A DNA stretch of 64,000 nt. Origin: Caldisericia bacterium (GTDB lineage Bacteria; Caldisericota; Caldisericia; JAAYUI01). The stretch covers positions 1,760,001-1,824,000 of the forward strand of contig OY771555.1 in assembly GCA_963674785.1 (NCBI GenBank), written 5' to 3'. Both the position numbers and the translations under genes were made by a program. The notes below the pieces were generated by a model that worked only from the letters and a program-made list of their open reading frames with translations, searched no databases and was not told the DNA's origin. Below, piece by piece: positions 5,189-58,600 of the stretch (position 1 is its first letter; each line of letters opens with the position of its first letter).

Positions 5189-6522
5189 TGAGAATCAAAA
5201 TGAGAGCAAGGCAGGCACTTGAATCTGCATTATCAAAAAAATTATCCTCCGCAGAAATCATAATGACCGATAGAAAAACAATCTCAATTGAGCTTCAGGA
5301 TAATTCTGTTCATGTAGCGACCGAAGACACTTCCGAGTGGACAGGAATCCGAGCCTTCAAGGGAAACTCTCTTGGTTTCTCAGCAGTCAATAGTTTGAAG
5401 GAAGACCGAATAAATGGTGCTATTGAGGAAGCTGTAAAAATCGCAAGCGTAGCACCACCTGACAAGTCAAATGTATTGCCCGAACCAGAGGTGATCCCCT
5501 GGGTAAAAGGTATGTATGATAAAGAGCTTGCATCAATGTCTCTTGACGAGTCTATCGGGATTGCAAAAAAAATCATCGAAACATGCAAGAATTACGACAA
5601 AAGAGTGAGTCTTGACTCGGGATCATTCCAGGTAATCGTATCAAATGTTGCGATCGCCTCATCCACAGGGATTGAAGCTTCAACAAGACAAAGCTTTGCT
5701 TTCTACGACATCATGGGAATGGCAAGAGATGGCGATGTGGTTTCATCATTTGATATTGAATACGGTGGAACACGAAAAATATCAGAAATTGACGTTGAAA
5801 CATCAGCGAAAAGACTCAGCGAAAAAGTGGTTTCATCACTTGGTGCAAAGTCAGGAAAATCATTCACAGGTCAGGTTATTCTTCAGGGGGATGCCGCAAA
5901 TGAATTGCTTTTATCTCCTCTGCTTTGGTCATCGTATGCTGAAAACATTCAGCTAGGATCATCAAGATTTAAAGGTAAACTCGGCAAAAGGGTAGCCTCA
6001 AGCAAACTCACAATAAAAGACTGGGGAAGAGCACCCGGACTTGTGGCGTCATACCCATTTGACAGAGAAGGGATTCCACCAAAAAGATTGTTCCCAATAC
6101 ATAATGGAATCTTTACTGATGTCTTCCACAACGCAAAAAGTGCTGCAAGAGATGGATCTGTTTCCAACGGTCATGCCGGTGGAAGCGGAAGCTCTACACC
6201 AAACATCACAACCTCAAATGTTTTTGTTAAACCTGGTAATGCAACACTTGATGATATTATCGCTGACACAAAACTTGGCATATTAGTCGGAAGGTACAGT
6301 GGGGATATTGATCCGAGTTCAGGAGATTTCAGTGGGTCTGTTAAAGGTGGGTATCTGATTGAAAATGGAAGAAAAACGCAGCCACTTCTTGGGACAATGA
6401 TTGCCGGAAACATATACGACTGTATCCAAAACATCTCAGCTATCTCATCTGACACCGTCTCGCTCATTGATGTTTTCATGCCAAGTATAAGGCTTGAAGG
6501 AGTGACGGTCTCTTCTAAATGA
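5188..6522 (+). CDS. pmbA: PmbA/TldE subunit
   Basis: FDREG, SNGHAG, SGDFS motifs; lacks the HExxxH motif; TAATG coupling to tldD. Confidence 0.9.
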   Translation: MRIKMRARQALESALSKKLSSAEIIMTDRKTISIELQDNSVHVATEDTSEWTGIRAFKGNSLGFSAVNSLKEDRINGAIEEAVKIASVAPPDKSNVLPEPEVIPWVKGMYDKELASMSLDESIGIAKKIIETCKNYDKRVSLDSGSFQVIVSNVAIASSTGIEASTRQSFAFYDIMGMARDGDVVSSFDIEYGGTRKISEIDVETSAKRLSEKVVSSLGAKSGKSFTGQVILQGDAANELLLSPLLWSSYAENIQLGSSRFKGKLGKRVASSKLTIKDWGRAPGLVASYPFDREGIPPKRLFPIHNGIFTDVFHNAKSAARDGSVSNGHAGGSGSSTPNITTSNVFVKPGNATLDDIIADTKLGILVGRYSGDIDPSSGDFSGSVKGGYLIENGRKTQPLLGTMIAGNIYDCIQNISAISSDTVSLIDVFMPSIRLEGVTVSSK

Positions 6523-7634
6523 GTTTAACTGCCGACAAGATTCTTCCATCAACTGCAACTGTGGATTTTGATCACCTGCAATCAAATGTCGGATTGATAA
6601 GAAGAATTACAAAAAATTCAAAGATAATGGCAGTTGTAAAGGCAAATGCTTATGGTCACGGCATAGTTCCAATCGCCAGAGCTCTTATTTCCTTCGGGGT
6701 TGAACATCTTGCAGTTCAAACACCAGAGGAGGCAATTGGACTCAGGATGGCGGGGATAACTGCTCCAATTTTGATCTTTGGATATACTCACGCTGCATAT
6801 GCAGCCGATATTATTCATCATGACCTGACACCAACCATTTTTGATTATGAGTTAGCTGTTTCTCTAAACCATCTTGCTCATAAAAACATTCCAATTCATA
6901 TCAAAATTGATACTGGAATGGGTTGGGCTGGCGTTGGCACGAGTGATGCTATTCCATTTATAAATCGCATTAATAAACTCGCCAATATCGAAATCAAAGG
7001 ACTATTTACACATTTTGCAGCAGCAGGCACTGATCCAATATTTACAAAAAAACAGGGAGACGAGTTTATTTCTCTTGTTTCAAAGATTAAAGAGAATGAA
7101 CACATTAACCCAGTACTTCATGCCTGTAATTCCACTGGAACAATGAATTTTCCTGAGTATCACTTTGATTACGTAAGACCGGGTCTAATGCTTTATGGAG
7201 TGGCACCAGGTGGAAAATATGACTCAGAGCTTTTGCCTGTTCTTTCATGGACATCATTAATATGCAACATGAAGGTTGTCCACCCAGGGGAATCCATTGG
7301 GTACGAACGAAGCTATAAAGCCGATAAAACCATGGTCGTTGGAACAATCCCAGTTGGTTATGCTGATGGCTGGAATTGGCGACTGAAAAACGACGGCCAG
7401 GTACTTATCTCAGGGAAAAGGGTTCCAATTATTGGTAGAATCTGTATGGATCAATTTATGGTTGATCTCACAGAGATAACATCTGCTGAAATTGGAACTG
7501 CAGTTACTCTTATTGGCAGCGACAATCAAGAAGAAATAACTGCATCTGAGCTTGCAAATATCGCTGGTACAATTCCATACGAAATCTTGACTTCATTGGG
7601 TAGTCGAATTAAGTTTAAATACAGAAAAAACTGA
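6519..7634 (+). CDS. alr: Alanine racemase
   Basis: AVVKANAYGHG PLP motif, HIKIDTGM, GRICMDQ. Confidence 0.97.
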   Translation: MSLTADKILPSTATVDFDHLQSNVGLIRRITKNSKIMAVVKANAYGHGIVPIARALISFGVEHLAVQTPEEAIGLRMAGITAPILIFGYTHAAYAADIIHHDLTPTIFDYELAVSLNHLAHKNIPIHIKIDTGMGWAGVGTSDAIPFINRINKLANIEIKGLFTHFAAAGTDPIFTKKQGDEFISLVSKIKENEHINPVLHACNSTGTMNFPEYHFDYVRPGLMLYGVAPGGKYDSELLPVLSWTSLICNMKVVHPGESIGYERSYKADKTMVVGTIPVGYADGWNWRLKNDGQVLISGKRVPIIGRICMDQFMVDLTEITSAEIGTAVTLIGSDNQEEITASELANIAGTIPYEILTSLGSRIKFKYRKN

Positions 7635-7647
7635 AAGGATGCTTAAT

Positions 7648-9975
7648 ATGAGAAAGCTGTTACCTTTTTTCCTCGCAATAATGTTGCTTATGTCGATGGT
7701 ACCAGTATTTGCATTGTCAACAAGTCTCACAACAGATGATTTCAAACCATCTCGTAAACTTCTTGTTGAAATGTTCCTGGAACCCGAATGAACCAAATGC
7801 CCACCTACTGTTAGTAGGTTAAAAGAATTAGAAGAAGAATATGGCACAGACAAGTTTTTTAAACTGAGGCTTCATTCAAACCCAAAAGACTCCTTTTTTG
7901 TCGAGGACATAGGAGATAGGTCAGAGTTTTACGAGCAGAAATCCTTTCCAACCATGGCATACAATGGAGTTGATTTGGTAAGACTTGCTCAATCAGGCGA
8001 AGAGGTTGATAAATCTGCTGACAAAGCACTTGCTAATCCAGTTGTTTATGGATCAAGCCTAGATTGCAAGCTAAGAGAAACTCCAACTGGGAATCTCCTT
8101 GAGGTCTATGGTCAACTTGAACAGATCAATCCCGGCTCAAAGGTGAACTTAAAGTATGTCTTCTTTTTGTATGAAGACTATCTTGAATTTGAAGAAGAAC
8201 ATACATTGCACATGACAAGGGCAATATCCCCATCCGCAAAAGGCTCTTCGATCAGAGTCACTCAGGGTGAGGTGACAAACGTAAAAAAAGAGTTCTCGCT
8301 TGATGTAATCGAAGTCGAAGAGAATGTTGGTGTGCTTTTTGCGGTTTTTGACGCTGACTCCAATGAGATTTACACTTATTCTCACTGGACTTTGCGCTCA
8401 CCACACATTGTAAAAGCAATTTCAAAGAAGCATTCACCAGAAAAACCAATCACATGTGAATTTGATATCGACATCGACCCTGAAACATTTTCTGAAAACA
8501 CAGTCCTTTGTGTCAGCTCAATCGGAAGACCTGTTAAGGGAACATACAATGTTTCTGGCAAGAAATGTTCATTCACGCCAAACGACCCTCTGAAGAAGGG
8601 AAGCGAATACGGTTTCTACCTTAAGGGTGGCAAAGACGGCATAACCTCGACAACTGACGTTGTGATGGACAATAATTTGGTTTGTTCCTTCATAGCTGAA
8701 GAATCTGAAGAGGCAATTCTTGAGATCGCAACTGAAGAGCTTGATTTTGGAAAACTGAGCGAACCAAGAGCACAAAAGGTTGAAATCAAAAACACCGGTA
8801 ATGCAAAGCTTGAGGGTAAAGCTGCAGTCGGAATGACATGGCTTAAGGTTGATCCTATGTCAATCAGTATCGATCCGGGTAAATCCATTGAGATGAATGT
8901 CACAATCAATCCCGCTGATCTCAAAGAGGGATTCCACAACTGCAACATAATTATCACAACCAATGGTGGAGATCATACAATTCCAGTTTCATTCCAATAT
9001 ATTCCAATTGCTGCTGAACTCAAAGTTTCCCCTGAGACGCTAGATTTTGGACAGGTTACTGTCAGCAAATCAAAATCAATGAAGCTGATGTTTACTGCGG
9101 ATGACACCGTTAAAGGAACAATTTCTGCAACAGAAGGTTGGATATCAGTTAATAAAGAATCATTTGAGTTTGCAAATGGTGAGATTGAAGTAATAGTAAA
9201 ACCAACAAAAGTTGATGATCTCAAAGGTGAGCTTCACATCGAATCAAATGGTGGAAACTTCACGATCCTTGTAACTGTTTCATGTGTACCTGAGGCTTCA
9301 ATTGAACTTGTGTCTGAAACATCAAACCCAACAACAAACGATCAAGCAGAACTGGTAATCAAGCTTGTTCCAACAGACAAAAAATTCAACCTATATCTCA
9401 ATGGTAAACTAGTTCAGGAAAATGTTGAAACAGCAGCAAATGGTGAGATGAGGCTTTATGTTGATATCACCCCAGGAAACAACACATTTAAGGTTGAATC
9501 AATAGGAACAGATGAAATTGTCACAGATGAAATCTCAATTACAAAACAGATAATCCTTCAGCTCTGGATTGGCAAGACAAACTATACTATTAACGGACAG
9601 ACTCTCACTCTTGATGTCGCTCCAACAGTTTCTTCCCCGCCACTTCCTGCTGAACTCAAAGACAATACCTACATGCCAATTCGTGCTGTTGCTGAGGCTT
9701 TGGGAGCCGAGGTTGGTTGGGTCGGAGCTGAAAAGAAAGTCACCCTCACACAAAAAAAGGCAGACGGAAGTACTAATTTCATTGAGCTCTGGATCAATAA
9801 AAAGACGGCAAAGGTTAATGGTGTTGAGACAAAACTTAATGATGCAGGCACACTTTATCCTGCAATCGTTTCCGATCGAACAATGCTCCCATTGAGGTTT
9901 GTTGCCAATAATCTTGGAGCAGAAGTAGGATGGGATGGAGCTGAAAGAAAGATAACCCTTACTTATCCAAAATAA
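7648..9975 (+). CDS. Probable secreted selenoprotein: Omp28/thioredoxin-like UxxC domain + Ig-like/BACON-like domains + C-terminal stalk (Cu-amine-oxidase-N-like) domain, 775 aa with Sec at codon 48
   Basis: ATG 7648 gives signal peptide MRKLLPFFLAIMLLMSMVPVFA; same frame reads KLLVEMFLEPE-TGA(7789)-TKCPP and stays open into the 7954 ORF; downstream FPT(M)AYNG cis-Pro-like motif; SECIS-like hairpin; selB/selC in window. Confidence 0.85.
7803..7819 (+). promoter_or_regulatory. Candidate bacterial SECIS element
   Basis: ACCTACT-GTT-AGTAGGT 7-bp perfect stem with G-first loop, starting after an 11-nt spacer behind the in-frame TGA. Confidence 0.7.
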
Positions 9976-10001
9976 CCTTCATTCTCTTATAACTAAACAC
10001 C

Positions 10002-10034
10002 AAAAAGCCACCACTTAAAAATGGTGGCTTTTTT
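10002..10034 (+). terminator. Rho-independent terminator
   Basis: AAAAAGCCACCA...TGGTGGCTTTTTT hairpin plus U-tract after the 9975 stop. Confidence 0.85.
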
Positions 10035-10063
10035 CTTTTTAGAATCTTTGTACAATCTTTTCC

Positions 10064-10816
10064 ATGAGCAAACTAGAGGCAGTAATTCTTGGTGGCGGTG
10101 GAATTGAAGAGTGGTTTGAACATGAACATGTGTCAAACAAAGGCATGTTAATATTAAATGGCAAACCAATGATAAGTTACTCTATTTCAGCCCTCAAAGA
10201 TATTGCAAACATAAACAAGATAACACTTATTGGTGACGGATACTCCAAAGAAGTCATCAATTCAGTAGATAGAAATATTTCAGATCATGGTTCACTTCCG
10301 GGTAATATTGATGCTGCATTTGAAAACGCAAACTCTGATTATGTTTTGATGATGATGTCAGATGTTCCGCTTATTACATCAGAAACCATCAGAGAGGTAT
10401 TAGCAACCATTCCTTGGGAGTCACATGATCTTTCACTTCCTGTTGTAACAAAAGAAGAGACTGAAAATAAGTTTCCAGGCACAAAAAGAACATTTGCAAA
10501 AACAAAAGAAGGTCATGTCAAAGTTGGAAATGTTTTCATCCTGAAAAAAGATGCATATTCAAAAATTCAGCCAATTGTAAAAGAAACAGCAAAAAGAAGA
10601 AAGTCTGTCATCAAACAGGCACTTCAACTCGGATTTGGATTCTTGTTCAGAATGATTGTTTTCAAAAACATCTCTATTCCCGAACTTAAAAAAAGAGTTG
10701 AAAAGATGCTTGGAATCACAGTAAACGCTGATATAGTTCCATTCCCCGAGCTTGGCGTAGATGTTGATAAAACATCTGATTTAGTTTTTTGCAGACAGAT
10801 TTTGGAGAGACATTAA
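10064..10816 (+). CDS. MobA-like NTP transferase family protein
   Basis: AVILGGG...NKGMLILNGKPMI, SDVPLIT, GVDVDKTSD. Confidence 0.8.
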   Translation: MSKLEAVILGGGGIEEWFEHEHVSNKGMLILNGKPMISYSISALKDIANINKITLIGDGYSKEVINSVDRNISDHGSLPGNIDAAFENANSDYVLMMMSDVPLITSETIREVLATIPWESHDLSLPVVTKEETENKFPGTKRTFAKTKEGHVKVGNVFILKKDAYSKIQPIVKETAKRRKSVIKQALQLGFGFLFRMIVFKNISIPELKKRVEKMLGITVNADIVPFPELGVDVDKTSDLVFCRQILERH

Positions 10817-18169: not shown

Positions 18170-20737
18170 ATGAGTTTATTCAAGTCGATCTTTGATTCGT
18201 CAGAGAAATTTTTGAAGAAGGCTAGACCTATTGTTGTAAAGATTAATGCTATGGAACCGGAATTTGAGGCAATGAATGACGATGACCTCAAGTCCAAAGC
18301 AAATGACCTAAGATTGCAGATTTCAAATGGAGAAAAGCTAGACAATATCCTAGTTCCATCATTTGCTCTTGTCAGGGAAGCAGCACGAAGAACCCTGAAT
18401 CAAAGACCATTTGACACACAGTTGATTGGTGGGATGGCACTCCATCATAGAAAAATTGCCGAAATGAAAACCGGTGAGGGTAAAACACTTGCTGCAACAT
18501 TACCGACGTTCCTAAACGCATTAACTGGAAAAGGTGTCCATGTTGTGACTGTCAATGATTACCTTGCAAGTCGTGATGCCGAGTGGATGGGTAAAGTTTA
18601 TTCGTTCCTTGGGATGACGGTTGGCAATATTGAAAGTGATGCCTCTTATGATACGAGAAGAGAGGCTTACAGATGCGATATCACATATGGTACAAACAAC
18701 GAGTTTGGATTTGATTATCTCAGAGACAACATGGCAAGAGACCCAAGCCAGCTTGTTCAAAGAGAACTTCACTATGCAATCGTCGACGAAGTTGACAGTA
18801 TTCTCGTTGATGAAGCAAGAACTCCACTCATTATTTCAGGGCCTGCTGAAAAATCTACTGATCTCTACTACACTGCAGCAAAAGTTGTCAAACAGCTGAA
18901 AGAAGAAGACTACACACTCGATGAAAAAAACAGAAATGTAACTCTCACTCAAGATGGTGTCCATCATGTAGAAAAAATATTGAATGTCACGAACCTCTAT
19001 GGTCAAGAGAATGTCGAGATAAACCGGCATGTAACTCAATCACTCAAAGCACACAGGTTATTTAAAGGTGATGTTGACTACATTGTCAAAGATGGTGAAA
19101 TTGTAATTGTTGATGAATTCACCGGAAGGTTGATGTTCGGAAGAAGATACAGTGACGGACTCCACCAGGCAATTGAAGCAAAAGAAAACCTTGAGGTCAG
19201 ACAGGAAAACCAGACACTCGCAACGATCACATTCCAGAACTATTTCAGAATGTATGAAAAACTCTCCGGAATGACAGGTACAGCAAAAACCGAAGAGAAT
19301 GAATTCAGGGAGATTTATGGGCTTGAAGTTGTTGTTGTCCCAACAAATAGACCAATTGCAAGAATCGATCACCCCGATGTTATATGGAAAAATGAGGCTT
19401 CAAAGTTTAAAAACATCATCAATGAAGTCGAAGGTTGCTACAAAAAGGGTCAACCAGTTCTTGTTGGTACAAGATCAATTGAAAAATCTGAGGAGCTTTC
19501 AAAAGCACTTAGAAAAAAAAGTATCCCCCATGAAGTTCTGAATGCAAAATACCATGAAAAAGAAGCACAGATCATCGCTAAAGCTGGTGAAGTAAATGCT
19601 GTTACCATCGCTACAAATATGGCGGGTAGAGGTGTTGATATTGCGCTTGCAGAAGGCGTTAAAGAGCGCGGGGGACTGCACATCATAGGAACCGAAAGAC
19701 ACGATTCCCGTAGAATCGATAATCAGCTTCGAGGACGTTCTGGAAGACAGGGAGACCCCGGTGGATCTAGGTTCCATCTCGCTCTTGATGATGAGCTTTT
19801 AAGGATTTTCGGTGGCGAGAGACTGCAAAGCCTCTTTGAATTCCTGAAAATCGACGAGGATGTTCCACTAGAACACCCAATGCTCACAAGAACAATTGAA
19901 AATTCTCAAAAAAAGGTAGAGGCAAGAAACTTTGATACCAGAAAATATGTTCTTGAATACGACGATGTTTTAAATAGACAAAGAGAAATTGTCTACGCAC
20001 AACGTCAAAGAGTACTCCATGGTGAAGACCTCCAAGATACGGTTCTTGATAAAATAAGCGTTGTTGTATCTGACATCTTAAACAGACACGCATCAACTGA
20101 ACTCATTCCTGAGGAATGGGACTTGAAAGCCCTCAAGTCAGAGGTTATGGATCTGACCGCTGGAAGGGTTGAAGATATTAGTTTCAGTGACAGAGGATCT
20201 CTAATCTACAATCTGACCCAAAGAATTCTTGAAGAGTACAAAAAGCGTGAAGAGGAATTTGGCGAAGAGACCATGCGCAACATGGAAAGATATGTTCTTC
20301 TCTATGTTGTTGATAACAAATGGAAAGACCACCTGTACAGCATGGATAACCTCCGCGAGGGAATTGGACTCCGTGGATATGGTCAAAAGAATCCCATCCA
20401 GGAATACCAGAATGAAGGATTTGCAATATTCAATGAAATGCTTGCGAGCATCTGGGACGATACCATCAAGTATCTCTTCAGATTCAGACTTCAACCAACT
20501 GCAAGACAAGAGCAACAACAAACACAAACAAATCAAGACAAGATCAAACAAGCTCAGAGAACAAGTGACATCCGACCCGAAAGAGAGAGGGTTTCAGGAA
20601 GAGCTGTCCCATCAAAAGGTGGCGGTCACAACACAAAACAGCCAATCAAACGCAGCTCTGAAAAAGTCGGTCGAAACGACCCTTGTCCATGTGGTTCAGG
20701 AAAAAAATACAAACAATGTTGTGGAAAGAATAGGTAA
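18170..20737 (+). CDS. secA: Preprotein translocase subunit SecA
   Basis: [47 protein letters not shown] motif [13 protein letters not shown]. Confidence 0.99.
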
Positions 20738-21807
20738 TGAAATACGTAAGAATTATTGTCACAGCAGTGGTTTGCTTAGCTTTCTTAGTTTTTGCATTTC
20801 TTATCAGAGACGATTTTATAACCGAAAAAGTTCAAGCAGAACTCACAAACCACTCAATCCTTGAATACAGGGATGGTGCGTCAGTATACATTGCTGAAGA
20901 GGACAATAATTCTAAGATTTATTTTGGTAAGGTTGGATCATCAAGTTTATTCGGTGTAGGCGCTCTCGCATTGGATGAAAACGCAAATATATTCACATCA
21001 GGTTTGAGGGTAAAATCTGACAACAAAGACCTTGTTTTTCCAAAACTGACTGACGTTTTATCTGTAGTTGTATCACCAAATTCAAAATATATTGCGGCTA
21101 TCTCAATTGACGGGTCAATGGATATTTTTGATCTAACTACAAATGAAAAAACATTTTCAACATCAACAAATCAAAAGGTCAACATAAAGAATCCTTTTGA
21201 ATTCGGAAATATTTCTGCTCCACCTTATGTTTTTTACTGCGGAGAACGATTTGTGTTTTCCATGGTTGAGTCAGAAGAGATATACTGGGGTATTCCACAG
21301 AAAACCCGAAGTGAAATCATAAGAGTAAACCCAAAAGATGGTAGTATTAGTAATCTTTTGGGTGAGGAATATGATGAGTTTGTTTTTGAGATAATGGGCA
21401 AAATTGATAATGACCATCTCCTTGTACATCTGAAACCATCAGACCTAAATTCGCTAATCAATCCCGATATAGCTTCAATAGATGTTAATAATGGCAATCT
21501 CAAAAAACTTAACAGTCAACTTGAAAATATCATCGGCTACAGTAAAAGAACCAACTCAGTTTATTATACTGATGATCAAGAGATTTTTTCAAAAAGGATT
21601 TTTTCTGACAAAATCTCGGAGGATAAAAAAAGAGTTAACATAAAATCCAAAACCACCGATGAAAATAGTTTTATTATTCTAAATTCTAGAATCACATCCA
21701 GCGGGTACATATTTCACCAAACTCCAAGCCAAGTTGAACAAAACATTCTGCTTGACCCTAAAACCGAAATCCCCGTCTTTTTGGATAAACAAAGGATACC
21801 GTACTAA
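20737..21807 (+). CDS. Hypothetical exported protein, possibly beta-propeller
   Basis: N-terminal TM/signal helix, VSPNSKYIA WD40/TolB-like segment; TAATG coupling to secA. Confidence 0.6.
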   Translation: MKYVRIIVTAVVCLAFLVFAFLIRDDFITEKVQAELTNHSILEYRDGASVYIAEEDNNSKIYFGKVGSSSLFGVGALALDENANIFTSGLRVKSDNKDLVFPKLTDVLSVVVSPNSKYIAAISIDGSMDIFDLTTNEKTFSTSTNQKVNIKNPFEFGNISAPPYVFYCGERFVFSMVESEEIYWGIPQKTRSEIIRVNPKDGSISNLLGEEYDEFVFEIMGKIDNDHLLVHLKPSDLNSLINPDIASIDVNNGNLKKLNSQLENIIGYSKRTNSVYYTDDQEIFSKRIFSDKISEDKKRVNIKSKTTDENSFIILNSRITSSGYIFHQTPSQVEQNILLDPKTEIPVFLDKQRIPY

Positions 21808-21808
21808 A

Positions 21809-22910
21809 ATGCTTGATGACGAACTAATTAGACAACACACGAAGGTTTGGACCAGATATGGTCAGGCCAAGGAGTTTCTTTGACCATCTGATTCCAAAAA
21901 GGGATGAGCTTCAAGAAGAGCTTGAAAAACCAGAGCTTTGGTCTGATCCTGAAAAGGCTTCAAAACTCAACAAAGAACTGACATTTATCAAAGGGCGTTT
22001 GGGTGAAGTTGAAGATGTCAAAAAGATACTTGATGAGTCTGATGTTTTACTTGAATTCTCAAGAGAAGAGGATTCTTCAATTGCTGATCTCAGAGACTCC
22101 ATAAATAAAGCAAATGATCTTTTAGAGTCAATTGAGCTAAAGAATCTTATGTCTGGTCGATTTGACCAGGGCAATGCTTTCTTATCGTTTTCAGCAGGAG
22201 CTGGAGGAGTTGACGCTCAGGACTGGACAGAGATGCTCATCAGAATGTACACAAGATGGGCAACCGAACACGGATACCATGTGAAGGTTACCGATAGGTC
22301 GGTTGGTGATGAAGCTGGAATAAAATCCGCTACACTCTACATTGAGGGCGAATATGCCTTTGGATTCCTTAAAAGCGAAAAGGGTGTCCACAGACTTGTA
22401 AGGATTTCGCCATTTGATTCAAACCACAGGAGACACACATCTTTTTCGTATGTTGAAGTGTTGCCAGAAATTGCACCCGCAGAACAGATTACGATTGATC
22501 CTAAAGATTTAAGAATTGATGTTTTCAACGCATCAGGACACGGCGGACAGAACGTTCAGAAAAACGCAACGGCAGTCAGAATCACACATCTTCCAACAAA
22601 AACTGTTGTTGCCTGTCAAAATGAACGCTCACAACTCATGAACAAAAACATGGCAATGAAAGTTCTGCAATCCAGGCTTCAGAAGCTTGAGGATGAAAGA
22701 CAAGCCGCAAAAGAAAAAGATCTTCGAGGCCCAAGAGTCTCCATTGAATGGGGAAACCAAATCAGGTCTTATGTTCTTCAGCCATATACAATCGTAAAAG
22801 ACAATAGAACAGGTGTTGAGATTGGGAATGTCACAAAGGTTCTCGAAGGTGATCTTGATGCTCTCATCTGGGGTTATCTAAAGTGGAAAGCAAAAGCAGA
22901 AGCTTCATAG
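21809..22910 (+). CDS. prfB: Peptide chain release factor 2 with programmed +1 frameshift
   Basis: ATG 21809 reads 24 codons to CTT-TGA-C (21878-21884); +1 frame carries SPF and GGQ motifs. Confidence 0.96.
21870..21884 (+). promoter_or_regulatory. prfB autoregulatory +1 frameshift site
   Basis: AGGAG internal SD, 3-nt spacer, CTT TGA C. Confidence 0.95.
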
Positions 22911-24745
22911 TAGGAACAGCAGGTCACGTCGACCATGGTAAGTCTGAGCTGATCCATCGAATAACAAATGTCGACCCAGACAGACTACCTGAAGAAAAAG
23001 AACGAAGTATGACAATCGTGCTTGGATTTGCTCCGCTTGATCTACCATCAAGAAAAAGATGTGGTGTTGTAGATGTTCCCGGTCACGAGCGGCTTGTAAA
23101 AAGGATGCTTGTTGGAGCCGTTGGATTTGACCTTGTATTGTTCGTAATCGCCTGTGATGAAGGACCACAAAAACAGACAGAGGAACATCTGGATATCCTG
23201 AATTATCTCGGTATAAAAAATGGGATAATTGTTCTAAATAAAGCTGATTTACCTCACGATAACGAGAAACTGATGACTGATGTCGGCAATCTTTTGAAGG
23301 GCACAACCCTTGAAGGATCTGAGATTGTGAAAGTAAGCTCAATCACAGGTGAAGGGATTGGTAAGCTTTTAGAAACAATCGATGCAACTCTTGATAGAAC
23401 CACACCTAAGCCAATAGACATGCCTGTATTTATGCCAATCGACAGAAAGTTTTTTGTGAAGGGAATCGGGCTTATTGTCGGAGGCACTCTCTGGCAGGGA
23501 GAGCTGAAGATTGGCGATAAGGTAGAGATTTTCCCATCAGGCAAAAAATTCAAGATAAAATCGCTTGAAAGCTTTGAAGAGGAGCTTCAAACTGCTGATG
23601 CTGGAAACAGGTATGCCCTTAGGTTTCAAGGAATAGAAAAAGACGATATTGAAACCGGCAATATTTTGATTTCACCAAACAGATTCAAAAAATACTCTGT
23701 TTTTGATGCCAAAATCAAACTCTCCACAAAGCTAAAAAAATACACAAGACTGAAGATTCACATCGACACAATAGAACAGGAAGTCGATATTATAAGAATC
23801 GGTGATGATTACATCAGGGTAAATCTCGAAACACCTCTGCCCATCACAAGGGGTGCAAGGTTTATCCTAAGAAAAATTGCACCAAATGATACAATTGGTG
23901 GAGGGGTTGTTTTAAATCCTGCCCCAAAAACAAAGCCAAACAACCCTGATACTCTCAAGTATCTAGGCACAATATCAAATTCAAACGATGAGGATTATCT
24001 TGATGGATTTATATCCAAAAGCAGGAATGACTTTTTAAAAACAGATGAATTGAGATTTAAGGTCAATTGGTCTGATAAACGTTTTGATGATTTCATTTCA
24101 AATGGGAAATACTACAAGGTTGAAGATTTGATCATCTCAAAGGAAATATTTGATGAGACAACAAGAAAACTATCGAAAGAGATAACAAAGTATTTTTCAG
24201 AAAATAAAAGTGTTGTCGTTTTACCGGTAAACAATGCAAAGGGGAAATTTCTACCTGAGGTATCTACAAAACTTTTTACACAAGTTTTGAATTCATCAAT
24301 AAAAAAGCCCCTCACTATCGATGGTTCTAAAATTATTAATAGCTCAAAGCAAGTAAAAATGTCTCCCGTTGAAGAAAAACTTGAGAAAATGTTTTTACTA
24401 GACTTATTCTCTCCACCAAAACTTGCCCAGGTAAAAAGTGCAAAGGTTTTTTCAGGGCAAGAGAGGGAGCTGAATCATGCGATCTCTAACTTCATCACCA
24501 ATCGAGTAATCTTTAAAGCAACAAGTGAGATATATTTTCACAAAAAATCCATTATTAAGGGATTTATAGTAATGAAATCAATTATTGAGAAAAACAAATC
24601 AGCAAAACTTGCTGATTTTAGAGATAAAGCAAATACAAGCAGAAAGTACGCTCAAGCTTTCCTAGAACTTCTTGATGCCCTGGGTTTAACAAGAAGACAA
24701 GGTGACGTGAGAGTACTTGGTCCAAAAGCTGTTGACCTCAAGTAG
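22883..24745 (+). CDS. selB: Selenocysteine-specific elongation factor SelB
   Basis: [30 protein letters not shown]; C-terminal winged helix [13 protein letters not shown]; tRNA-Sec immediately downstream. Confidence 0.96.
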
Positions 24746-24748
24746 ATG

Positions 24749-24767
24749 TTTGCATATCATATGCAAA
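24749..24767. repeat. Perfect 9-bp inverted repeat between selB and selC
   Basis: TTTGCATAT-C-ATATGCAAA. Confidence 0.7.
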
Positions 24768-24781
24768 TGACAAGTGAATTC

Positions 24782-24873
24782 GGGGGTGGTTGGGTCCTGG
24801 TGGGCCTCCTGGTCTTCAAAATCAGTGTGGGGCTGTCGTCCCGGGTAGGTTCGATTCCTATGCACTCCCGCCA
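24782..24873 (+). tRNA. selC: tRNA-Sec (TCA)
   Basis: 6-bp D stem with TGGT loop, CT-TCA-AA anticodon loop (24816-24818), long variable arm, GGTTCGATTCC, GCCA end. Confidence 0.96.
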
Positions 24874-36787: not shown

Positions 36788-39745
36788 ATGAAATTACCGA
36801 AAATTATATCTGTCCTCACAGTAACACTGTTGATTGTAACAATGTTTGCAAGTGTTAATACACCTGAGGCAGAAGCAGCTCCATTGAGTACTGGACAGTC
36901 TCTAATCGTAACCTCATCACCATCGGTTTTAACCGCCGGTGTTGTTTCAGAGCTGATTGACCCATCACTTCCACTTATGATCAAGGTAACAGATCAGGAT
37001 GGTACACCAATCGATCTGACAGTATCAGCAGACGGAGAAACTATCAAAACAGATGATGTTTGGAATCTATTGTTTAGAGACCCCCATCCTGATAACAGAG
37101 ATTATTTTGGATCATCAGCCTCTCTTCCACAATACTACTGGACTAGAACTGATCTTCACAATGATGACGGCACAGAGGTCTGCAACGAAACACTATTTGG
37201 CAAAGATATGATTGATATCGATTTCTCAAGAGCATCTGAGGGTATCTATATCTTTGAGGGTTTCGTGGCAAATGATGTTGGAAACTTCTATATCAGCGTA
37301 ACCACACCAGATAGAAGAAGAGCAGGGTCGGTAAAAATCCAGGTAAAATCACCTATTGTAAGTTATGAGATAGTAAATATGGATGATCCAGACCTAAGGG
37401 TTTTTGACTCTCCTGACGATCCCGATTTTGTAATGACTGCACTTGATAATCGAATCTACAACATAAGAGTTACCGCAAAAGATGCCATGGGAAATGTGAT
37501 TCGTGGAGTAAGCGAGGGAGTGAGTCTTTGCACTGGAATCAAAAGAACTGCCAGATTCACACCATTTACAACTAGACCAGCAAACTATGGATGGTCAGAA
37601 GAACCAACTGAAATAGTAGACACAAATTTTTATTCAGGTGGAACCGCATATTTCCTCTCGGATGTCGGCGACAGATACGATCTTCACATTGGACTCGATC
37701 TGGACAATAATGGAAAACTTGAATGGACAAACAAAGAACTTCATAGATTTGGTCCACAATATGTCTTTAACCCAGAGAGAAGATCAAACACCGGATATTA
37801 CACATACTACAACACAACAAACTACATGTACAAAGACGGTGATTTTTCTGAGCATCCTTTCTTTGATCTTCCGCCAGCACTTCATGGTGGATGGGGTCTC
37901 GGATGTATCTATAACAGTTCCAAATTTGGTGGGATGGTTATGTCTGATTTCAATGATGACTACAAGATTGACTATCGAGATAGCTTGAATCTTGATAGCA
38001 CAGGACAAACTTCATTCTATCTTTTTGCAGAAGATGCCTGTTTTGTTGGCGGACTCGTTGGAAATAGTTATTGGGGTGACTACGATGTGGCTGGAAGACC
38101 TCCATACTCAGAGACATCTCCACAATACATCACATCAAGATACAAAGGTGATGGAACATACTATCTCGATTTTGACGCCATCCCAGACAATGTCTGCAAA
38201 CTTGAACCGCCAAAATTCAAACTTCTTTGGGCAAAGACAAGAGAAGAGATTGGAAAATCAATGTTCAACACTGACCTTTACGATCTTATCTATGCTGCCC
38301 AAAACCATGTTGTTGCAATCGTTTCTCCTGCCGATGAAAGAGACATCCCAATCCAGTCATCAGGTGAGGTTGGAATGGTAGGTAACCAGCACGAAACTGC
38401 AATCTATGGAAGACTCGAATACGAAGAAGAATTTGGGACAACAGAAACAACAATTCATTTCACACCAACAGGTGTTGGAAGCAAAGTAATCGAGGTCAGA
38501 TACCAGGCTGCAAATAGATGGTACAATGCGGGTCTTGATGGTTCACCAAGACATTATTACATCGAAGAAGTGTTTTGGATCGACTCTGTCAAAGGTCTTG
38601 CTCTGGACATCATACTTGATGAGGAACCAAAAATCGGGAAAGAATCCACCATTAAAATCCTCTGCCAAGAACTTGGCTCAAAAAAGCCCGTTTCAGACGT
38701 TCTTGTAACTCTCAGTGGTGGCGGAGTTCATCAGAGTGAAGTGTCTGGAATTGACGGGATAGCAACATTTACATGTGAGTTTGAAAATACCGGAGAAATT
38801 GAAATAACAGTTGAAAAAGACGGTTTCAATTCAGGTATCAATACATTCATGGTTGGTGCTGACGATGAACCACCAACACTTGAGGTCGAAGAACTTCCCA
38901 AGATAACAAGAGATAGAAATGTTATAATCGAAGGAATCACAACACCTGGATCAATTGTTAAAATCGAGGGAGAAGAGATTCCTGTTGACTCAAACGGAAA
39001 ATTCATGAAAAACTACACCCTCGAAACAGGAAAAAATATCATTGAAGTTATATCAGAGGATGATTCTGGAAACCAGACCAAGGTCGAACTTGAAGTAACC
39101 CTTGATGACATTCCACCAGAAATCCTTATTGATGACATTGAAAAACAGGTCGATGTTGACGAAGTTATCATCAGTGGGCGTGTTGAGGTTGGCTCAATGG
39201 TCAGAGTTGGTGATACTGAGGCAACCGTCGTAAACGATGTTTTCAAGGCAACCATACCAGTTGTACCTGGAGTTAATAAAATTGAAGTATCGGCAATGGA
39301 TTCCGCCGGAAACAGTAATACAAAAGAGGTAAGCGTTACAATTTGGCATAAGACAGTGATTCAAATGCAGATCGACAATACCATTGTTATTGTTGATGGA
39401 AAACTTACCCCAACCCTTGAAGCCCCACCATACATCAAAAATGACAGAACTATGGTTCCAATCAGAGCAATCTCTCAGGGTTTCGGGGCAACAGTGAAAT
39501 GGTTCCCAGAGGACAGAACTGTTGCGGTATCACTTGACGACGGACTTGGGCAGATTTCAATCATAATGCAGATTGGTTCAAAAACTGCATTTGTTGGTAA
39601 CGATCTTATTACACTTGATGCAGAACCCGAAATCGTAAACGGTAGAACATTTGTTCCATTGAGATTTGTTGCTGAAAGCCTTGGCTGCGAAGTTGAGTAT
39701 CAAGCTGAAGAAAAAATTATAATAATGGAACGAATAGCTTATTAG
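36788..39745 (+). CDS. Large secreted protein with Ig-like repeats and C-terminal stalk domain
   Basis: Signal peptide ending AEA; Ig-like G.N.I.V...D..GN repeats; RTMVPIRAI and RTFVPLRFVAESLG. Confidence 0.8.
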   Translation: MKLPKIISVLTVTLLIVTMFASVNTPEAEAAPLSTGQSLIVTSSPSVLTAGVVSELIDPSLPLMIKVTDQDGTPIDLTVSADGETIKTDDVWNLLFRDPHPDNRDYFGSSASLPQYYWTRTDLHNDDGTEVCNETLFGKDMIDIDFSRASEGIYIFEGFVANDVGNFYISVTTPDRRRAGSVKIQVKSPIVSYEIVNMDDPDLRVFDSPDDPDFVMTALDNRIYNIRVTAKDAMGNVIRGVSEGVSLCTGIKRTARFTPFTTRPANYGWSEEPTEIVDTNFYSGGTAYFLSDVGDRYDLHIGLDLDNNGKLEWTNKELHRFGPQYVFNPERRSNTGYYTYYNTTNYMYKDGDFSEHPFFDLPPALHGGWGLGCIYNSSKFGGMVMSDFNDDYKIDYRDSLNLDSTGQTSFYLFAEDACFVGGLVGNSYWGDYDVAGRPPYSETSPQYITSRYKGDGTYYLDFDAIPDNVCKLEPPKFKLLWAKTREEIGKSMFNTDLYDLIYAAQNHVVAIVSPADERDIPIQSSGEVGMVGNQHETAIYGRLEYEEEFGTTETTIHFTPTGVGSKVIEVRYQAANRWYNAGLDGSPRHYYIEEVFWIDSVKGLALDIILDEEPKIGKESTIKILCQELGSKKPVSDVLVTLSGGGVHQSEVSGIDGIATFTCEFENTGEIEITVEKDGFNSGINTFMVGADDEPPTLEVEELPKITRDRNVIIEGITTPGSIVKIEGEEIPVDSNGKFMKNYTLETGKNIIEVISEDDSGNQTKVELEVTLDDIPPEILIDDIEKQVDVDEVIISGRVEVGSMVRVGDTEATVVNDVFKATIPVVPGVNKIEVSAMDSAGNSNTKEVSVTIWHKTVIQMQIDNTIVIVDGKLTPTLEAPPYIKNDRTMVPIRAISQGFGATVKWFPEDRTVAVSLDDGLGQISIIMQIGSKTAFVGNDLITLDAEPEIVNGRTFVPLRFVAESLGCEVEYQAEEKIIIMERIAY

Positions 39746-39846: not shown

Positions 39847-42573
39847 ATGATCAAACGTGCTGTAACCCTGATTCTAGTAATAGTTATAATTTTTGTAACT
39901 GTCGATATTGAGGCTAATGCTGACGAAAAATTTAATTTCCTCGTCGTTACAACAACAAAGTTAATTGATGCAATTCAACCTCTTGTCAATCACAGGACAG
40001 AACAGGGTTTCAGGGCAAAAATAATAACCATTGACAAAATTCACACCGATTCTTCGAAATCAAAATCTGAAAGCCTTTGGGATTACCTCAACGAGAACTA
40101 TCAGGAATGGGGTCTATCATATCTCCTGATTGTTGGTGATTACAAAGATATCCCGCAGGCAAAACTCTGTTCATCAAACGGTGCGGAAGATATTGAAGAG
40201 AATCAACCAGGGATCGTTTATACGGACATCTATTATTCTGTTCTTGGGCAGGATTGGGATACAAACGATAACGGTCTTTTGGGTGAGCCTATAGATAATG
40301 TACCAATCGATCCTCAGATCTCAGTTGGTAGAGTTCCATTCTCAGACTCAAAGATTGTTGAGTCATGGGTGGAACAGGTGATCAGTTATGATGAGTCATC
40401 GAACAAACGAAGAGCTCTTCAAATTGGTGCGATATATCTTTTTGATGACGAAGACGGAAATCCATCAAACTCATATACCGATGGTGCAACAATGCATGAT
40501 GTTATTTGGGATGAGATTCTTTCACAAAATAATTTCTCAAGATTCAGGATTTTCGAAAATGATTCCCTGGGTATGGATGAAAAATCCCAAACAGACCGAG
40601 CTCTGAACTCATCAAATATTCTAACAGCACTTTCTGAGAATGAATTTGGAATGGTGAATTTCCTTGCCCACGGTACCAAAACAACAGTTCTGAGAAAAAG
40701 ATGGAGAAAAGACGTAAACAATAACGGCAGAGCTGATAACACCAGTGCATCATCTGAGAAAGAAATACTTATCGAAACACTCTTTTCATCAGAACAGATT
40801 TCCTCAATCGATATCAACTGTGGTGTTGTTATTGGTACAGCCTGCTCAACTGCCTATATTGCAACCGGAATTGACTCTGTCGCAACTTCATTCTTAAGGT
40901 CAGGAACAGCGGCCTACATAGGAGGAAGTGCATTAAATTATTTTGCATCAGGCTGGAAATCCAAAGAAGATGGCGGAAATCAGGCAATTTCATACAACCT
41001 GACAAAATATTATGTTGAGGGAGCAACTCTCGGCTGGTCACTAATGTCCACTTTGAGGGATTACTACTATCAGTTCAGCAATATCAGTAATACTGATTAC
41101 ACTCTCCAAAACATATATTCATTCATTCTTCTCGGTGACCCAACAATGAAACTTGATCCCCCAAAATCCGTAAAACAGATACCCCTTATCCTCAATCCCC
41201 AATCTCTAAAAGTAACTTCTGGTGAAAAGTCTTTCTTTGATTTAGAAATCGGTGATGTCAACGCATCAGAAAACCTCACACTCGATATTTCACCAAGGAT
41301 TAATGGGATTGAATTCATCCTCCCATCAAAAAATCTCGTTCCAGGCGATTCTTTCAGAATAGATATTGAAACCTCAATAACTCTCAAGCCAGGAGATTAT
41401 GAATTCAACATAAGCTGTGTGGCAGGTGAGTATGAAGGCGGGGAAACCTTAAGACTAAAGATAATTCCTCCTGCTCAAACATCAAATGTTAAACTTGTTC
41501 CTGACTATACTCTCGTCACCCAAAATCACGAGTTTTGGCTGGATTTGATAGTTGAACCGACTAAACCAATTGACAGTTTAGCAGGAACTTTAATCTACGA
41601 TTCAAACTGTTTTGAGTATGTCGGTTACCGAATTGGAAGTATCGTAACCGAAGACTACCGGTGCCCCGATTCGATTTCGATTGTAGATCGACCCGGGTAT
41701 TCAGATCTTGTTTTTAGCTTTGACAGGAATGTTGACACCTACGGAATAACAAATACCGGTATCGTTCTTTCGTTTTGCTTTAAAGGAGTTTGCCCAACTG
41801 AAGAGGGTAGCCAAAAGTTCGCCATCTCCTCTCTTATTATTCAATCAAACAAAGATGACGGAAGAAGGGAGCATAGCTTCTCATCTCTTCCACATTCGCT
41901 TGTAAATGTCAGAAAGATTGATCCTGATATATCGGATTTCTTCATTCATACGGGTATCGAGAGTAATTTTGAATTTGATGCTGACTTAAACATAGGTGAA
42001 GATATTTTTACTCTGAAAGGTGCTACGACAATCGGGACAATTTTGTATATAAATGGAAAACCAATCCCAGTTGACTCTGAGGGGTTCTATAACACAAATA
42101 TTGAATTAAACAGTCTCTTCACAGATATTGAACTAAAGATTGAGGATGAATTTAATCGCTACCTTATGATCAAAAGACGAATCAAGAAAACAACTATCAA
42201 AGAGCTGGCTTTCCATAGCAATGAAAGCTCTGCTTGGACAAACGGGAAGTGCAGAACTCTCGATGCAAGCCCCTACATTAACAATAACGGTAGAACGCTT
42301 GTACCAATAAGGTTTATCGCAGAACAACTAGATTTTGTTGTCTCCTGGAATCAAACTGAAAAAAGGGTCGATATTTCAAAAAATGGAACAACAATCAAGA
42401 TGTGGATCGGAAGCAGCAATTCAAACATAAATGGAAAAAACCTGAATCTCGACGCTCCTCCAGAGATAAAAAATGGTAGAACATTTGTTCCACTAAGATT
42501 TATAAGCGAAGCGCTATCCTGTGATGTAGTGTGGGATTCAAAAACAAGGTCAGCGATAGTCAGATATGAATCA

Positions 42574-55600: not shown

Positions 55601-58600
55601 TTACAACGTTGCTATCATTATCATCTAGGCTGACTTCTTCCCACGGGGCAAGTCCACCATCTTCTGCATCAATCCATTCAAGCATAATATCACTTTTATC
55701 TAATTCAGGTTTTCGGATTTTTCCATCTTCATCAAGAGTAACCTTCACACCTTTTGTTTCAGGGATCCATTCTACATCGGCACCAAAGGCCTCTCCAACA
55801 AACCTAAATGGGACAAAAGTTCTTCCCTCAACTATCATTGGAGCCCTCACAAGTTTAGTTTTTGTGCCGTTAATCTTGCCTTCAAGATTGTCTATCTGAA
55901 TCTCAATAAGAGTTTTTCCAAGAACAGCAATAACTGTTCTCGAATCAGCTTCCCACTTAATATCGGCACCAAATGCTTCTCCAATAAATCGAAATGGCAC
56001 CATAGTTGTATCAATATGAATAAACGGCGGGTTTTCTAAGTTGTAATCTTCGCCATTTACTTTTGCATCTTTTGAATCGATTTGAACTTCAATGATCTTT
56101 TTGTTACTTTTTACAAAATACCCAACAGGAAGTTTTGCCTCGACCGCTCCAGAACTAACAATCAGATTTGCCCTATATTGTTTGTCTGGCTCGATCTTTG
56201 ACTCATCCACCCAAACATTGATGATATCAGAAACCTCAGTGTTCAAAGTATTTGGATAACATATCAACCAGTCCTCATCAACTTCAATTTTGCACTCAAC
56301 TTCTCGATTGGATTCAATTTTATATGATTCCAAATCCTCCACTATGGAAATAGATATTTTTAACTCTTCAATATCCAAAGTCAACGTGTGAACTTCAGGT
56401 TCTTCATCAATAGAGATAAGGATTCCAAGTTCAATCAACAGCTCTCCTGGTAGATAAACATCTCCATTGCTTGCTTCAACCACAGGGGATGAAAGCTTAA
56501 ACGGACTATGACCAATCACCGAAACATCTGAACCCAACCACAGTCTAACGATTTTGTCACCCGCAACGATTGTTCTCTGATTTCCATCGGAAGAAATATC
56601 AAGACCAAAAGCCATAGAGATAACCGATGATGGATAAAGGAAACCAAAATCAGTTGCGATCAACTTATTTTTTATGGAACGGGTACTGCCAGCAATTATT
56701 ACCGAATTGCTTTCTGGTTCTAATTCAACCTCTATAACCGGAGAGCTACTGGATACAACGGTTACAGGTATTAAAACCACACCACCTGTTGTATCAATTG
56801 TTAACATACAGGTGTTCAGTCCTCTGTCTGTCACCTTGGAAATATCAACAGTTGCTGAAACTTTTGTTAGCTGGGGATCAAGAACATTTGGTGTGATTGT
56901 CATCCAATCCGAGCATGCTTTTATCGTTCCTTCAATTGGTCCCTCACCGATATTTTCAACCTCAAACGATATGCTCTTTTTCCCAAGCTCATCTGGGATG
57001 TATCCAAAATTTAGCATATCTTTCGAAACCGAAAGCATTGGTCTTGGTTCATAGTTTATAACAAGTTTCTTTTCAATCTTGTATCCAGTTCCGACCTGGT
57101 TTGATGTTACAGTGATTTCATTATCACCATCTGACAGTGTTAGGTTTAGCTTAAACAAACCGCTCGCGGAAGCAGTTGTTGCCCTTCCTCCGACATAAAC
57201 CATTGAACCTTTTCCAGTATAACCGGTAAGCTCATATTCAGGATTTGTTGCAAGTATCTTTTCTTCATCCTGCCCATCAACAAACAGATAGAACGGATCG
57301 GACATTTTGGAAACAATATGGGTTATCACACGTGCGACAAGCTCAATTCCTTCAATTGAAACATTTTCAAAAGTATCATCTGGGACATGATATTTCTGTG
57401 GTCCACGACCAAGGACAAAAACTGCCGGGACACCCTTCTGGGCAAAAGGACCATGATCTGAATTATTGCTTGCATTGAAATAAACATAATCCACACCAAG
57501 TATTGAACAGGAATTTTTGAAGATACCGGACAAATGTGTATGACTTGAATCATACCCAAAAGCAACCGCATTCTGGTTTCCAGAAACCATATCCATGTTT
57601 AAAACTGTCATACCTTCAAGAGGGAATGGGGGATTGTTTGCCATATGGGTTGAACCAAGAAGACCAATTTCCTCTCCAGAAAACGCAACAAAGGCTATGT
57701 TTATGTTGCTTCTTATATCTGAGCTTGTCAAAACTCTTGCAACCTCAAGCATGGCAGCAGTTCCTGAACCGTTATCTGCAGCACCATTGTAGACTTCACC
57801 CATTGGATCAATTCCAACATGGTCATAGTGAGCAGTAATCATTACCGTTTGGTTTGCACCAAATGGATCAGATGCTGGGATATACCCAACAACATTTGAT
57901 GTATCAACACTCTCCTCAACTCTGATATTGACTTCGATACTTGCTTTTATATCTTTCAATGCAAAAGAATTTGGAGCTTTTATTTCATCAATAGAATCAA
58001 AAAGCTCTTCAGGTGTATAACCGTTATTTTCGAGCAATTTCTTTGAGCCATCATATGACATGAAAAGACAAGGCACACGCTCATTATATCCGGTTCCCTG
58101 TTTGATGTTTATGTTGTTTTGATTTCTTTCAGGTAGCTTAGGGTTTTCCATGATAATTACACCAACAGCTCCATGGTTTACGGCGTTTGCGATCTTTGTA
58201 TTGTAATACATCACACTGTAAAGGGATTCATTTTCCTCAAACATGCTTTGAATAAACATCGGGGCATGTCTAAAAATTACCGCAATTTTCCCATCAACAT
58301 CTACATCTTTATAGTCATCATATTCCAAACCTTCGGCAGACACGGTGATTCCAAAACCAGCAAAAACAAGTGGAGTATTCACCGTCTTTCCAGAACCAGA
58401 AACCACACAGATATTATAATCCTCTCGATACTTCATCTCGAAAGGAGCTTCACCATCAGCATCTCTTATATCAAATCTTAAAGGAGCTTCAGGATACCAC
58501 AATGGAACATTGTAGTGTTGAAGATAAGTTCCATCATCACCAGCAGGAGTTAGACCCATTTTTGCAAACTCACCCGATATGTAATCTCTAGCCAAAGTTA

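Follow-up and report, generated by a model that had tools for sequence, protein, structure and literature searches.

Why the 319 nt between alr and a 673-residue open reading frame (ORF) should appear non-coding under translation table 11, and yet be coding, is the question raised by a locus in the window analysed here, a 64,000-nt stretch of contig OY771555.1 (positions 1,760,001 to 1,824,000 of the forward strand, assembly GCA_963674785.1) from an uncultured member of the Caldisericales. Our analysis indicates that a TGA codon within this interval almost certainly encodes selenocysteine (Sec, U), and that this residue belongs to the active site of a thioredoxin-like protein predicted to be exported. 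Positions 7648-9975 very probably constitute one gene, encoding a 775-residue selenoprotein, presumably exported and envelope-held, with a Sec-containing thioredoxin module of the HBP35/Omp28 type.

The ATG at 7648 lies 14 bases past the end of alr, and the frame opened there ends with TAA at 9975 and contains exactly one internal stop, the TGA at 7789-7791, which is codon 48 and is embedded in the residues KLLVEMFLEPE-U-TKCPP. Table 11 yields only two ORFs at the locus, 7639-7791 (50 aa) and 7954-9975 (673 aa). The elements of the reading frame are the following:

6519-7634, + strand: alr, whose stop is the TGA at 7632-7634
7635..7639, + strand: Shine-Dalgarno-like AAGGA, 8-nt spacing to ATG 7648, by direct reading
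7648..9975, + strand: full gene of the predicted selenoprotein, 775 codons, one of them for Sec, and the stop TAA
7648..7713, + strand: putative signal peptide, residues 1-22, comprising MRK, a hydrophobic core and VFA
7789..7791, + strand: TGA taken to encode selenocysteine (U48), which opens the U-x-x-C redox motif, from family conservation and Cys in distant homologs
7798..7800, + strand: TGC, Cys51, the presumed resolving cysteine of U-x-x-C, an invariant alignment column

Ortholog starts form an aligned M/V-K-K, and a comparable N-terminus is found in all of them. Residues 1-47 contain no Cys that could serve a lipobox, and the cleavage region of the putative signal peptide reads VFA-LS. 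No terminator-like hairpin was found between alr and the selenoprotein gene. The preliminary description of this DNA had taken the gap after alr to be coding, with a frame running from ATG 7648 to 9975 and the peptide KLLVEMFLEPE-U-TKCPP behind a signal peptide, and had regarded the gene as missed by the ORF caller; the frame and its conservation bear this out, and the sequence is as it was given. In a whole-library search, the public entries for the protein and its orthologs begin only after the TGA, and a word-based homolog search gave two entries of 673 aa, one being the ORF of the window itself and the other 72% identical to it. A truncated version is thus all that the databases contain, the apparent stop near the gene start almost certainly encoding Sec.

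The identity of codon 48 was examined by six-frame searches, of 40 relatives first and then of 93 phylum genomes. Each genome belonging to this family yielded an ortholog with a single TGA (10 of 10 relatives and the genome itself, thus 11 of 11, in three genera), and the TGA occupies the identical aligned codon in all 11, within the motif E-P-[E/G/N]-U-[T/A]-[K/F]-C. These orthologs are 34-70% identical over the first 261 residues; nine of them align without gaps and with invariant residues on either side of the TGA, and all orthologs conserve the protein sequence of the 54 codons from the TGA to Met103 without needing a gap. Such a pattern is far beyond chance, with the TGA at one aligned codon in all 11 genomes, no gaps in the alignment and invariant residues on its flanks. 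The remaining 82 phylum genomes gave no TGA-bearing match, and a second locus search, seeded with the nine Sec orthologs, returned the same 10 relatives only, one of its two patterns demanding a Cys codon and being unable to match TGA. Among the genomes searched, the Sec form is restricted to one family of the Caldisericales. The order tldD-tldD-alr-gene-NTP transferase-uppP-recG is identical in the six relatives whose loci were fetched.

Outside this family, the Sec position is occupied by Cys. All 16 distant database homologs that were aligned carry Cys at the Sec column, as do all 16 rows lacking a stop in a 25-row alignment, including four class-level homologs from Caldisericota, and WCxxC stands at the aligned place in all nine stop-free class-level loci printed, which are weaker matches. 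The Glu, the Sec/Cys, the second Cys, the cis-Pro position and a Gly are invariant in the alignments with distant homologs. The gene therefore shows both the Sec/Cys pair by which a bacterial selenoprotein gene is recognized and an in-frame TGA conserved in the orthologs of other organisms (PMC13188914). Sequencing runs, all in the form of Logan contigs, cover the locus as well. Contig X4, which derives from a different sample of the same study, has zero differences across 7715-7865, and contig X1, near-identical to the locus, may be the source of this DNA. Contig X3, from another study, covers 7613-8122 with four differences, one of them listed. Contig X9, from a metatranscriptome and about 86% alike, spans 7400-8540, from alr into the gene start, and possibly represents carried-over DNA.

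The genome (2.23 Mb in a single contig, 39% G+C) contains the complete machinery for Sec synthesis and insertion: selD, selA, selB and tRNA-Sec all score above curated cut-offs. Two of these genes lie in the window:

22883..24745, + strand: selB, Sec-specific elongation factor
24782..24873, + strand: tRNA-Sec, anticodon TCA (ARAGORN: tRNA-SeC, tca)

The selD gene itself carries an in-frame TGA, in the context GCAG-U-ESKWGPG (G000:C1:175829). TGA otherwise functions as a stop, terminating 362 of the 1333 genome ORFs of at least 200 aa, and alr as well. In the window, a prfB-like release-factor gene (PCRF and RF-1 domains), selB and tRNA-SeC(tca) are consecutive at 21858-24873, and the gene of the UGA-reading release factor thus adjoins the Sec-decoding genes; a 356-aa ORF at 20737-21807, between secA and the release-factor gene, is without a Pfam match at E <= 1e-5.

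A further element expected of a bacterial selenoprotein gene is a selenocysteine insertion sequence (SECIS) in the message downstream of the UGA, and a candidate is present:

7803..7819, + strand: SECIS-like hairpin with a stem of 7 bp and a GUU loop that starts 18 nt after the UGA

It begins 12 nt past the TGA, a position shared by all 11 orthologs, and its loop G and U are invariant. Five of six pairs are altered on both sides in the 11-row alignment (10 distinct rows), 90% of the cells are paired compared with 13-38% when the 3' partners are slid, and the covariation score was reached by 0 of 500 shuffles. The loop G-U and the 18-nt spacing between UGA and loop fit the consensus model of the bacterial SECIS (bSECIS) as given in the legend of Fig. 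2 of PMC13188914. The hairpin of selD begins 3 nt after its TGA, unlike that of the exported selenoprotein, and comparison with the folded selD TGA context yielded no common SECIS consensus within the genome. The initial proposal of an exported UxxC selenoprotein with Sec replacing the first Cys is supported by the TGA/Cys pairing, the machinery and the covarying hairpin. Its expectations that homologs would pair TGA or Cys with codon 48, that sequencing would show no TGC, TGT or TGG there and that selA and selD would be encoded in the genome were all borne out, the second by the unchanged contig from another sample and the last with selB and tRNA-Sec in addition; TGA is also, as it had stated, a normal stop elsewhere, which speaks against a variant code.

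The protein that results from reading through codon 48 has a modular architecture, and its parts were delimited as follows:

7717..8397, + strand: HBP35/Omp28-type module, a thioredoxin-like domain then a beta-sandwich, residues 24-250 (AlphaFold2 (AF2), Foldseek and profile)
8428..8655, + strand: Big_5 bacterial Ig-like domain, residues 261-336 (35.1 bits, cut-off 23.6)
8713..8988, + strand: BACON_2 / HYDIN-VesB-type Ig-like domain, residues 356-447 (45.4 and 38.9 bits, each exceeding its cut-off)
9016..9291, + strand: putative second Ig-like domain, residues 457-548 (sub-threshold only, DUF5717_N 23.7 bits, cut-off 25)
9355..9576, + strand: possible DUF4397-like beta domain, residues 570-643 (sub-threshold, 21.6 bits, cut-off 30.6)
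9652..9957, + strand: C-terminal Cu_amine_oxidN1 ('stalk') domain, residues 669-770 (97.7 bits), probably for envelope attachment

The N-terminal module alone (238 residues) has no match in Pfam even at E <= 10. Its AF2 model, built from the 25-row alignment, has a pLDDT (predicted local distance difference test) of 90.6 and comprises a thioredoxin-like domain and a beta-sandwich, in which the Sec immediately precedes helix 1, Cys51 falls within the first turn of that helix and the conserved Pro lies before strand 3. Foldseek against the PDB ranked 5y1a first (E 2.2e-12, TMq 0.75, 259 columns), followed by 2axo, Omp28 2r2c and many thioredoxins, and the family profile matches HBP35 5y1a by sequence as well (E 3.6e-11), with the CxxC of HBP35 aligned to U-x-x-C. 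The same architecture, including Cu_amine_oxidN1, was found in the six of six orthologs fetched, with lengths of 675-779 aa. Two orthologs of one genus (L050 and L051) are about 100 residues shorter, at 675-676 aa; in one of them a Glucodextran_B-like domain replaces the second Ig-like domain, and across the two the spacer region is variable and both end modules are kept.

The C-terminal domain is common in this organism. Cu_amine_oxidN1 (PF07833) matches the genome 148 times, the longest of the open frames concerned reaching 4688 aa, and may be a general module of its exported or envelope proteins. Elsewhere in the window it occurs at about 39392-39724 (+), 42241-42558 (+) and 55743-56063 (-). 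The Omp28-like module likewise has relatives in the genome, namely four Cys-type (WCxxC) paralogs in open frames of 976-1894 aa, three of which also hold Cu_amine_oxidN1. They lie at G000:C1:1233099-1233827 (-), 1638299-1639057 (-), 1282238-1283023 (-) and 738889-739674 (+), and in two of the four frames the module is mid-frame rather than N-terminal. A gene of the CcdA/DsbD type adjoins an ORF of 132 aa for a membrane-anchored thioredoxin-like protein with CxxC (locus L063, 1489-2576 (-); G000:C1 ~374600-375700), and this pair sits beside a Cu_amine_oxidN1 protein. The selenoprotein gene is followed by one further element:

10002..10033, + strand: terminator-like hairpin after the gene

One alternative is that the TGA is a true stop, giving a 47-residue secreted peptide and a separate 673-aa protein from ATG 7954. 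The table 11 ORF lists and the database entries give exactly this split, and TGA is a common stop of the genome; against this, the 54 codons from the TGA to Met103 are conserved as protein and free of gaps in all orthologs, the 673-aa form lacks a signal peptide and begins in the middle of a thioredoxin fold modelled with high confidence, and the TGA falls in the column of an invariant catalytic Cys, so we consider this alternative extremely improbable. A single internal stop is also what a nonsense mutation in a pseudogene, or an error of assembly or sequencing at the TGA, would be expected to leave in one genome. The chance of such an event is practically negligible here, since 11 of 11 independent assemblies, from three genera, share the TGA at this codon, the contig from the other sample is unchanged over 7715-7865 and no further stops or frameshifts occur in the 775 codons.

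Several observations weigh against the interpretation as an exported, envelope-held Sec protein with redox activity. The hairpin by itself is short and weak, at only -4.7 to -7.9 kcal/mol; the limit of the bSECIS model, -7.5 kcal/mol, is reached by 7 of 11 orthologs (39-nt folding window), the copy in the window analysed here has -7.4 kcal/mol and those in three genomes of one genus -4.7 to -5.9 kcal/mol, and the z-score against shuffles is no more extreme than -0.92 for an 81-nt fold. An Rfam scan of 7000-10500 at E <= 10 returned weak, irrelevant matches and no SECIS family. The signal peptide was called by eye, and it is the abundance of Cu_amine_oxidN1 that suggests its role as an anchor. 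The neighbouring genes are housekeeping and cell-wall genes, and none of them indicates a substrate or a redox partner. The E-P-x-U flank stands in place of the usual T-W-C, and the chemistry could differ from that of classical thioredoxins. With the hairpin weaker than the energy limit in 4 of 11 orthologs, read-through of the UGA might insert Cys, Trp or some other amino acid instead of Sec; the complete Sec machinery, a selD that itself contains TGA, the use of TGA as a normal stop genome-wide, the covarying hairpin with its G-U loop at the right distance and the location at the classic Sec/Cys site of thioredoxin-fold selenoproteins make this very unlikely. A different question is whether the module chiefly binds a ligand (such as haem, a soft metal or a metalloid), with U48/C51 or with the beta-sandwich, and does not turn over disulfides. 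In HBP35, hemin is bound by the M135-P344 part and C48 and C51 are not needed for this (PMC2907840), and the beta-sandwich is conserved here; genes for transporters or haem uptake are absent nearby, and redox catalysis is favoured because Sec occupies the nucleophilic position of an intact U-x-x-C and the cis-Pro is conserved. We therefore regard a predominantly ligand-binding role as unlikely; such a role could accompany redox activity and is not exclusive of it.

For the reading as an exported Sec-dependent redox protein, we propose the following scheme. SelB and tRNA-Sec, encoded about 15 kb downstream, would decode the UGA at 7789-7791 as selenocysteine, and the short conserved hairpin 12 nt past it would assist this decoding. 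The N-terminal signal peptide would then export the protein, the C-terminal Cu_amine_oxidN1 domain would probably hold it at the cell envelope, and the Ig-like spacers would hold out the N-terminal HBP35/Omp28-type module with its redox motif U48-T-K-C51; a surface location is suggested by the signal peptide and the C-terminal domain. Judging from the chemistry of the thioredoxin fold and the activity of HBP35, the exposed selenolate of U48 may attack a disulfide, or a comparable sulfur substrate, outside the cytoplasm, whereupon C51 would resolve the adduct, leaving an internal selenenylsulfide. Re-reduction might be achieved by environmental reductants or by the CcdA-type protein and its membrane thioredoxin-like neighbour, a possible transmembrane reducing route that nothing ties to the selenoprotein.

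A more far-reaching proposal, which we regard as rather improbable, concerns the origin of this protein. The Sec form would have arisen independently in one family of the Caldisericales from the lineage's own Cys-type Omp28-like surface proteins, and not from the marine GOS_C selenoproteins, and would serve as an extracellular selenol catalyst on an Ig stalk, acting on polysulfide, thiosulfate-derived, chalcogen or metal species in an anaerobic phylum that reduces sulfur compounds. If this were true, it would represent an envelope-displayed selenoenzyme with a new type of anchor and a new active-site signature, E-P-x-U-x-K-C.

The immediate consequence of our analysis is a correction of annotation, in that none of the database entries found contains the catalytic N-terminus with the putative signal peptide and the active site. 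The gene adds a selenoprotein to the Caldisericota and indicates that the Omp28/HBP35-type thioredoxin module bears Sec in yet another phylum and together with another anchoring domain, which supports the view that exported UxxC proteins of the thioredoxin fold are a recurrent and systematically under-annotated class. No new mechanism is implied, because Sec at the first position of a thioredoxin CxxC is the commonest design of bacterial selenoproteins. The gene is real and well supported, and the finding is solid rather than surprising.

Among characterized proteins, the best comparison is with HBP35, the 35-kDa hemin-binding protein of Porphyromonas gingivalis (5y1a). HBP35 is a surface protein whose disulfide-reductase (thioredoxin) activity requires C48 and C51, as described in the corresponding passages of PMC2907840. 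The two proteins share a signal peptide, a thioredoxin-like domain, a redox motif at positions 48 and 51, a beta-sandwich and a C-terminal domain for surface attachment, the first and the last of these being predicted in the window protein, and U48 of the window protein aligns with C48 of HBP35; the profile match extends over HBP35 residues 1-271, so that the two-domain fold is present with the redox motif aligned. The differences are nevertheless considerable: HBP35 has Cys where the window protein has Sec, it is without Ig-like spacers and identity is about 15%. HBP35 ends in a C-terminal domain of a type IX secretion system (T9SS), whereas a T9SS sorting domain is absent from the window protein, whose C-terminus is Cu_amine_oxidN1.

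Omp28 (PF11551, NF033782, PDB 2r2c) belongs to the same domain superfamily, and 2r2c is among the Foldseek matches. The window protein falls outside both Omp28 families, with no PF11551 match and 25 bits against a cut-off of 150 for NF033782, and one ortholog lies just above the PF11551 cut-off (35.8 compared with 34.9 bits). Unlike Omp28, it is without the lipoprotein Cys, carries Sec for Cys and has a long C-terminal extension. A literature search pairing Omp28 with selenoproteins returned no paper.

The nearest precedent with Sec is GOS_C, predicted in 2008 by Zhang and Gladyshev and described in the relevant part of PMC2398784 as a thioredoxin-like fold with UxxC and function unknown, for which 74 Sec and 312 Cys sequences were reported. 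In a 2026 review (PMC13188914), the entry for NCBIfam NF045500, 'Omp28-related selenoprotein', equates it with 'Hypothetical protein GOS_C' and gives the motif as UxxC. The likeness, as far as these descriptions go, lies in the thioredoxin-like fold with UxxC, the existence of Cys homologs and a presumed function in thiol redox reactions, and the window protein has such a UxxC in U48-T-K-C51. Against the NF045500 model, the full-length protein scores 14.7 bits and its N-terminal module 17.6 bits, a weak match over the motif region, and the model fits the Cys paralogs of the genome better than the Sec protein. The window protein stands outside NF045500 because these 14.7-17.6 bits compare with a cut-off of 200; the best score in the 93 phylum genomes, 59.6 bits, likewise stays below it. 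In a comparison made through the hidden Markov model and the published descriptions, the E-P-x-U flank and the multi-domain architecture also set it apart from GOS_C. From its sequence, it is thus a distant relative of the GOS_C family and not a member of the equivalog.

The preliminary description had proposed a signal peptide, a Sec-thioredoxin, Ig/BACON-like spacers and a stalk domain, an arrangement with which Pfam, AF2 and Foldseek agree, and had not known this architecture as that of a characterized selenoprotein. In this last respect the novelty was overstated, as GOS_C was predicted in 2008 and HBP35, a Cys relative, has been characterized; the lineage-specific character of the architecture stands. 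The protein is a divergent member of the kind predicted in 2008, and it differs in the E-P-x-U flank, the combination of Ig spacers with a Cu_amine_oxidN1 tail and the restriction, among the genomes searched, to one family.

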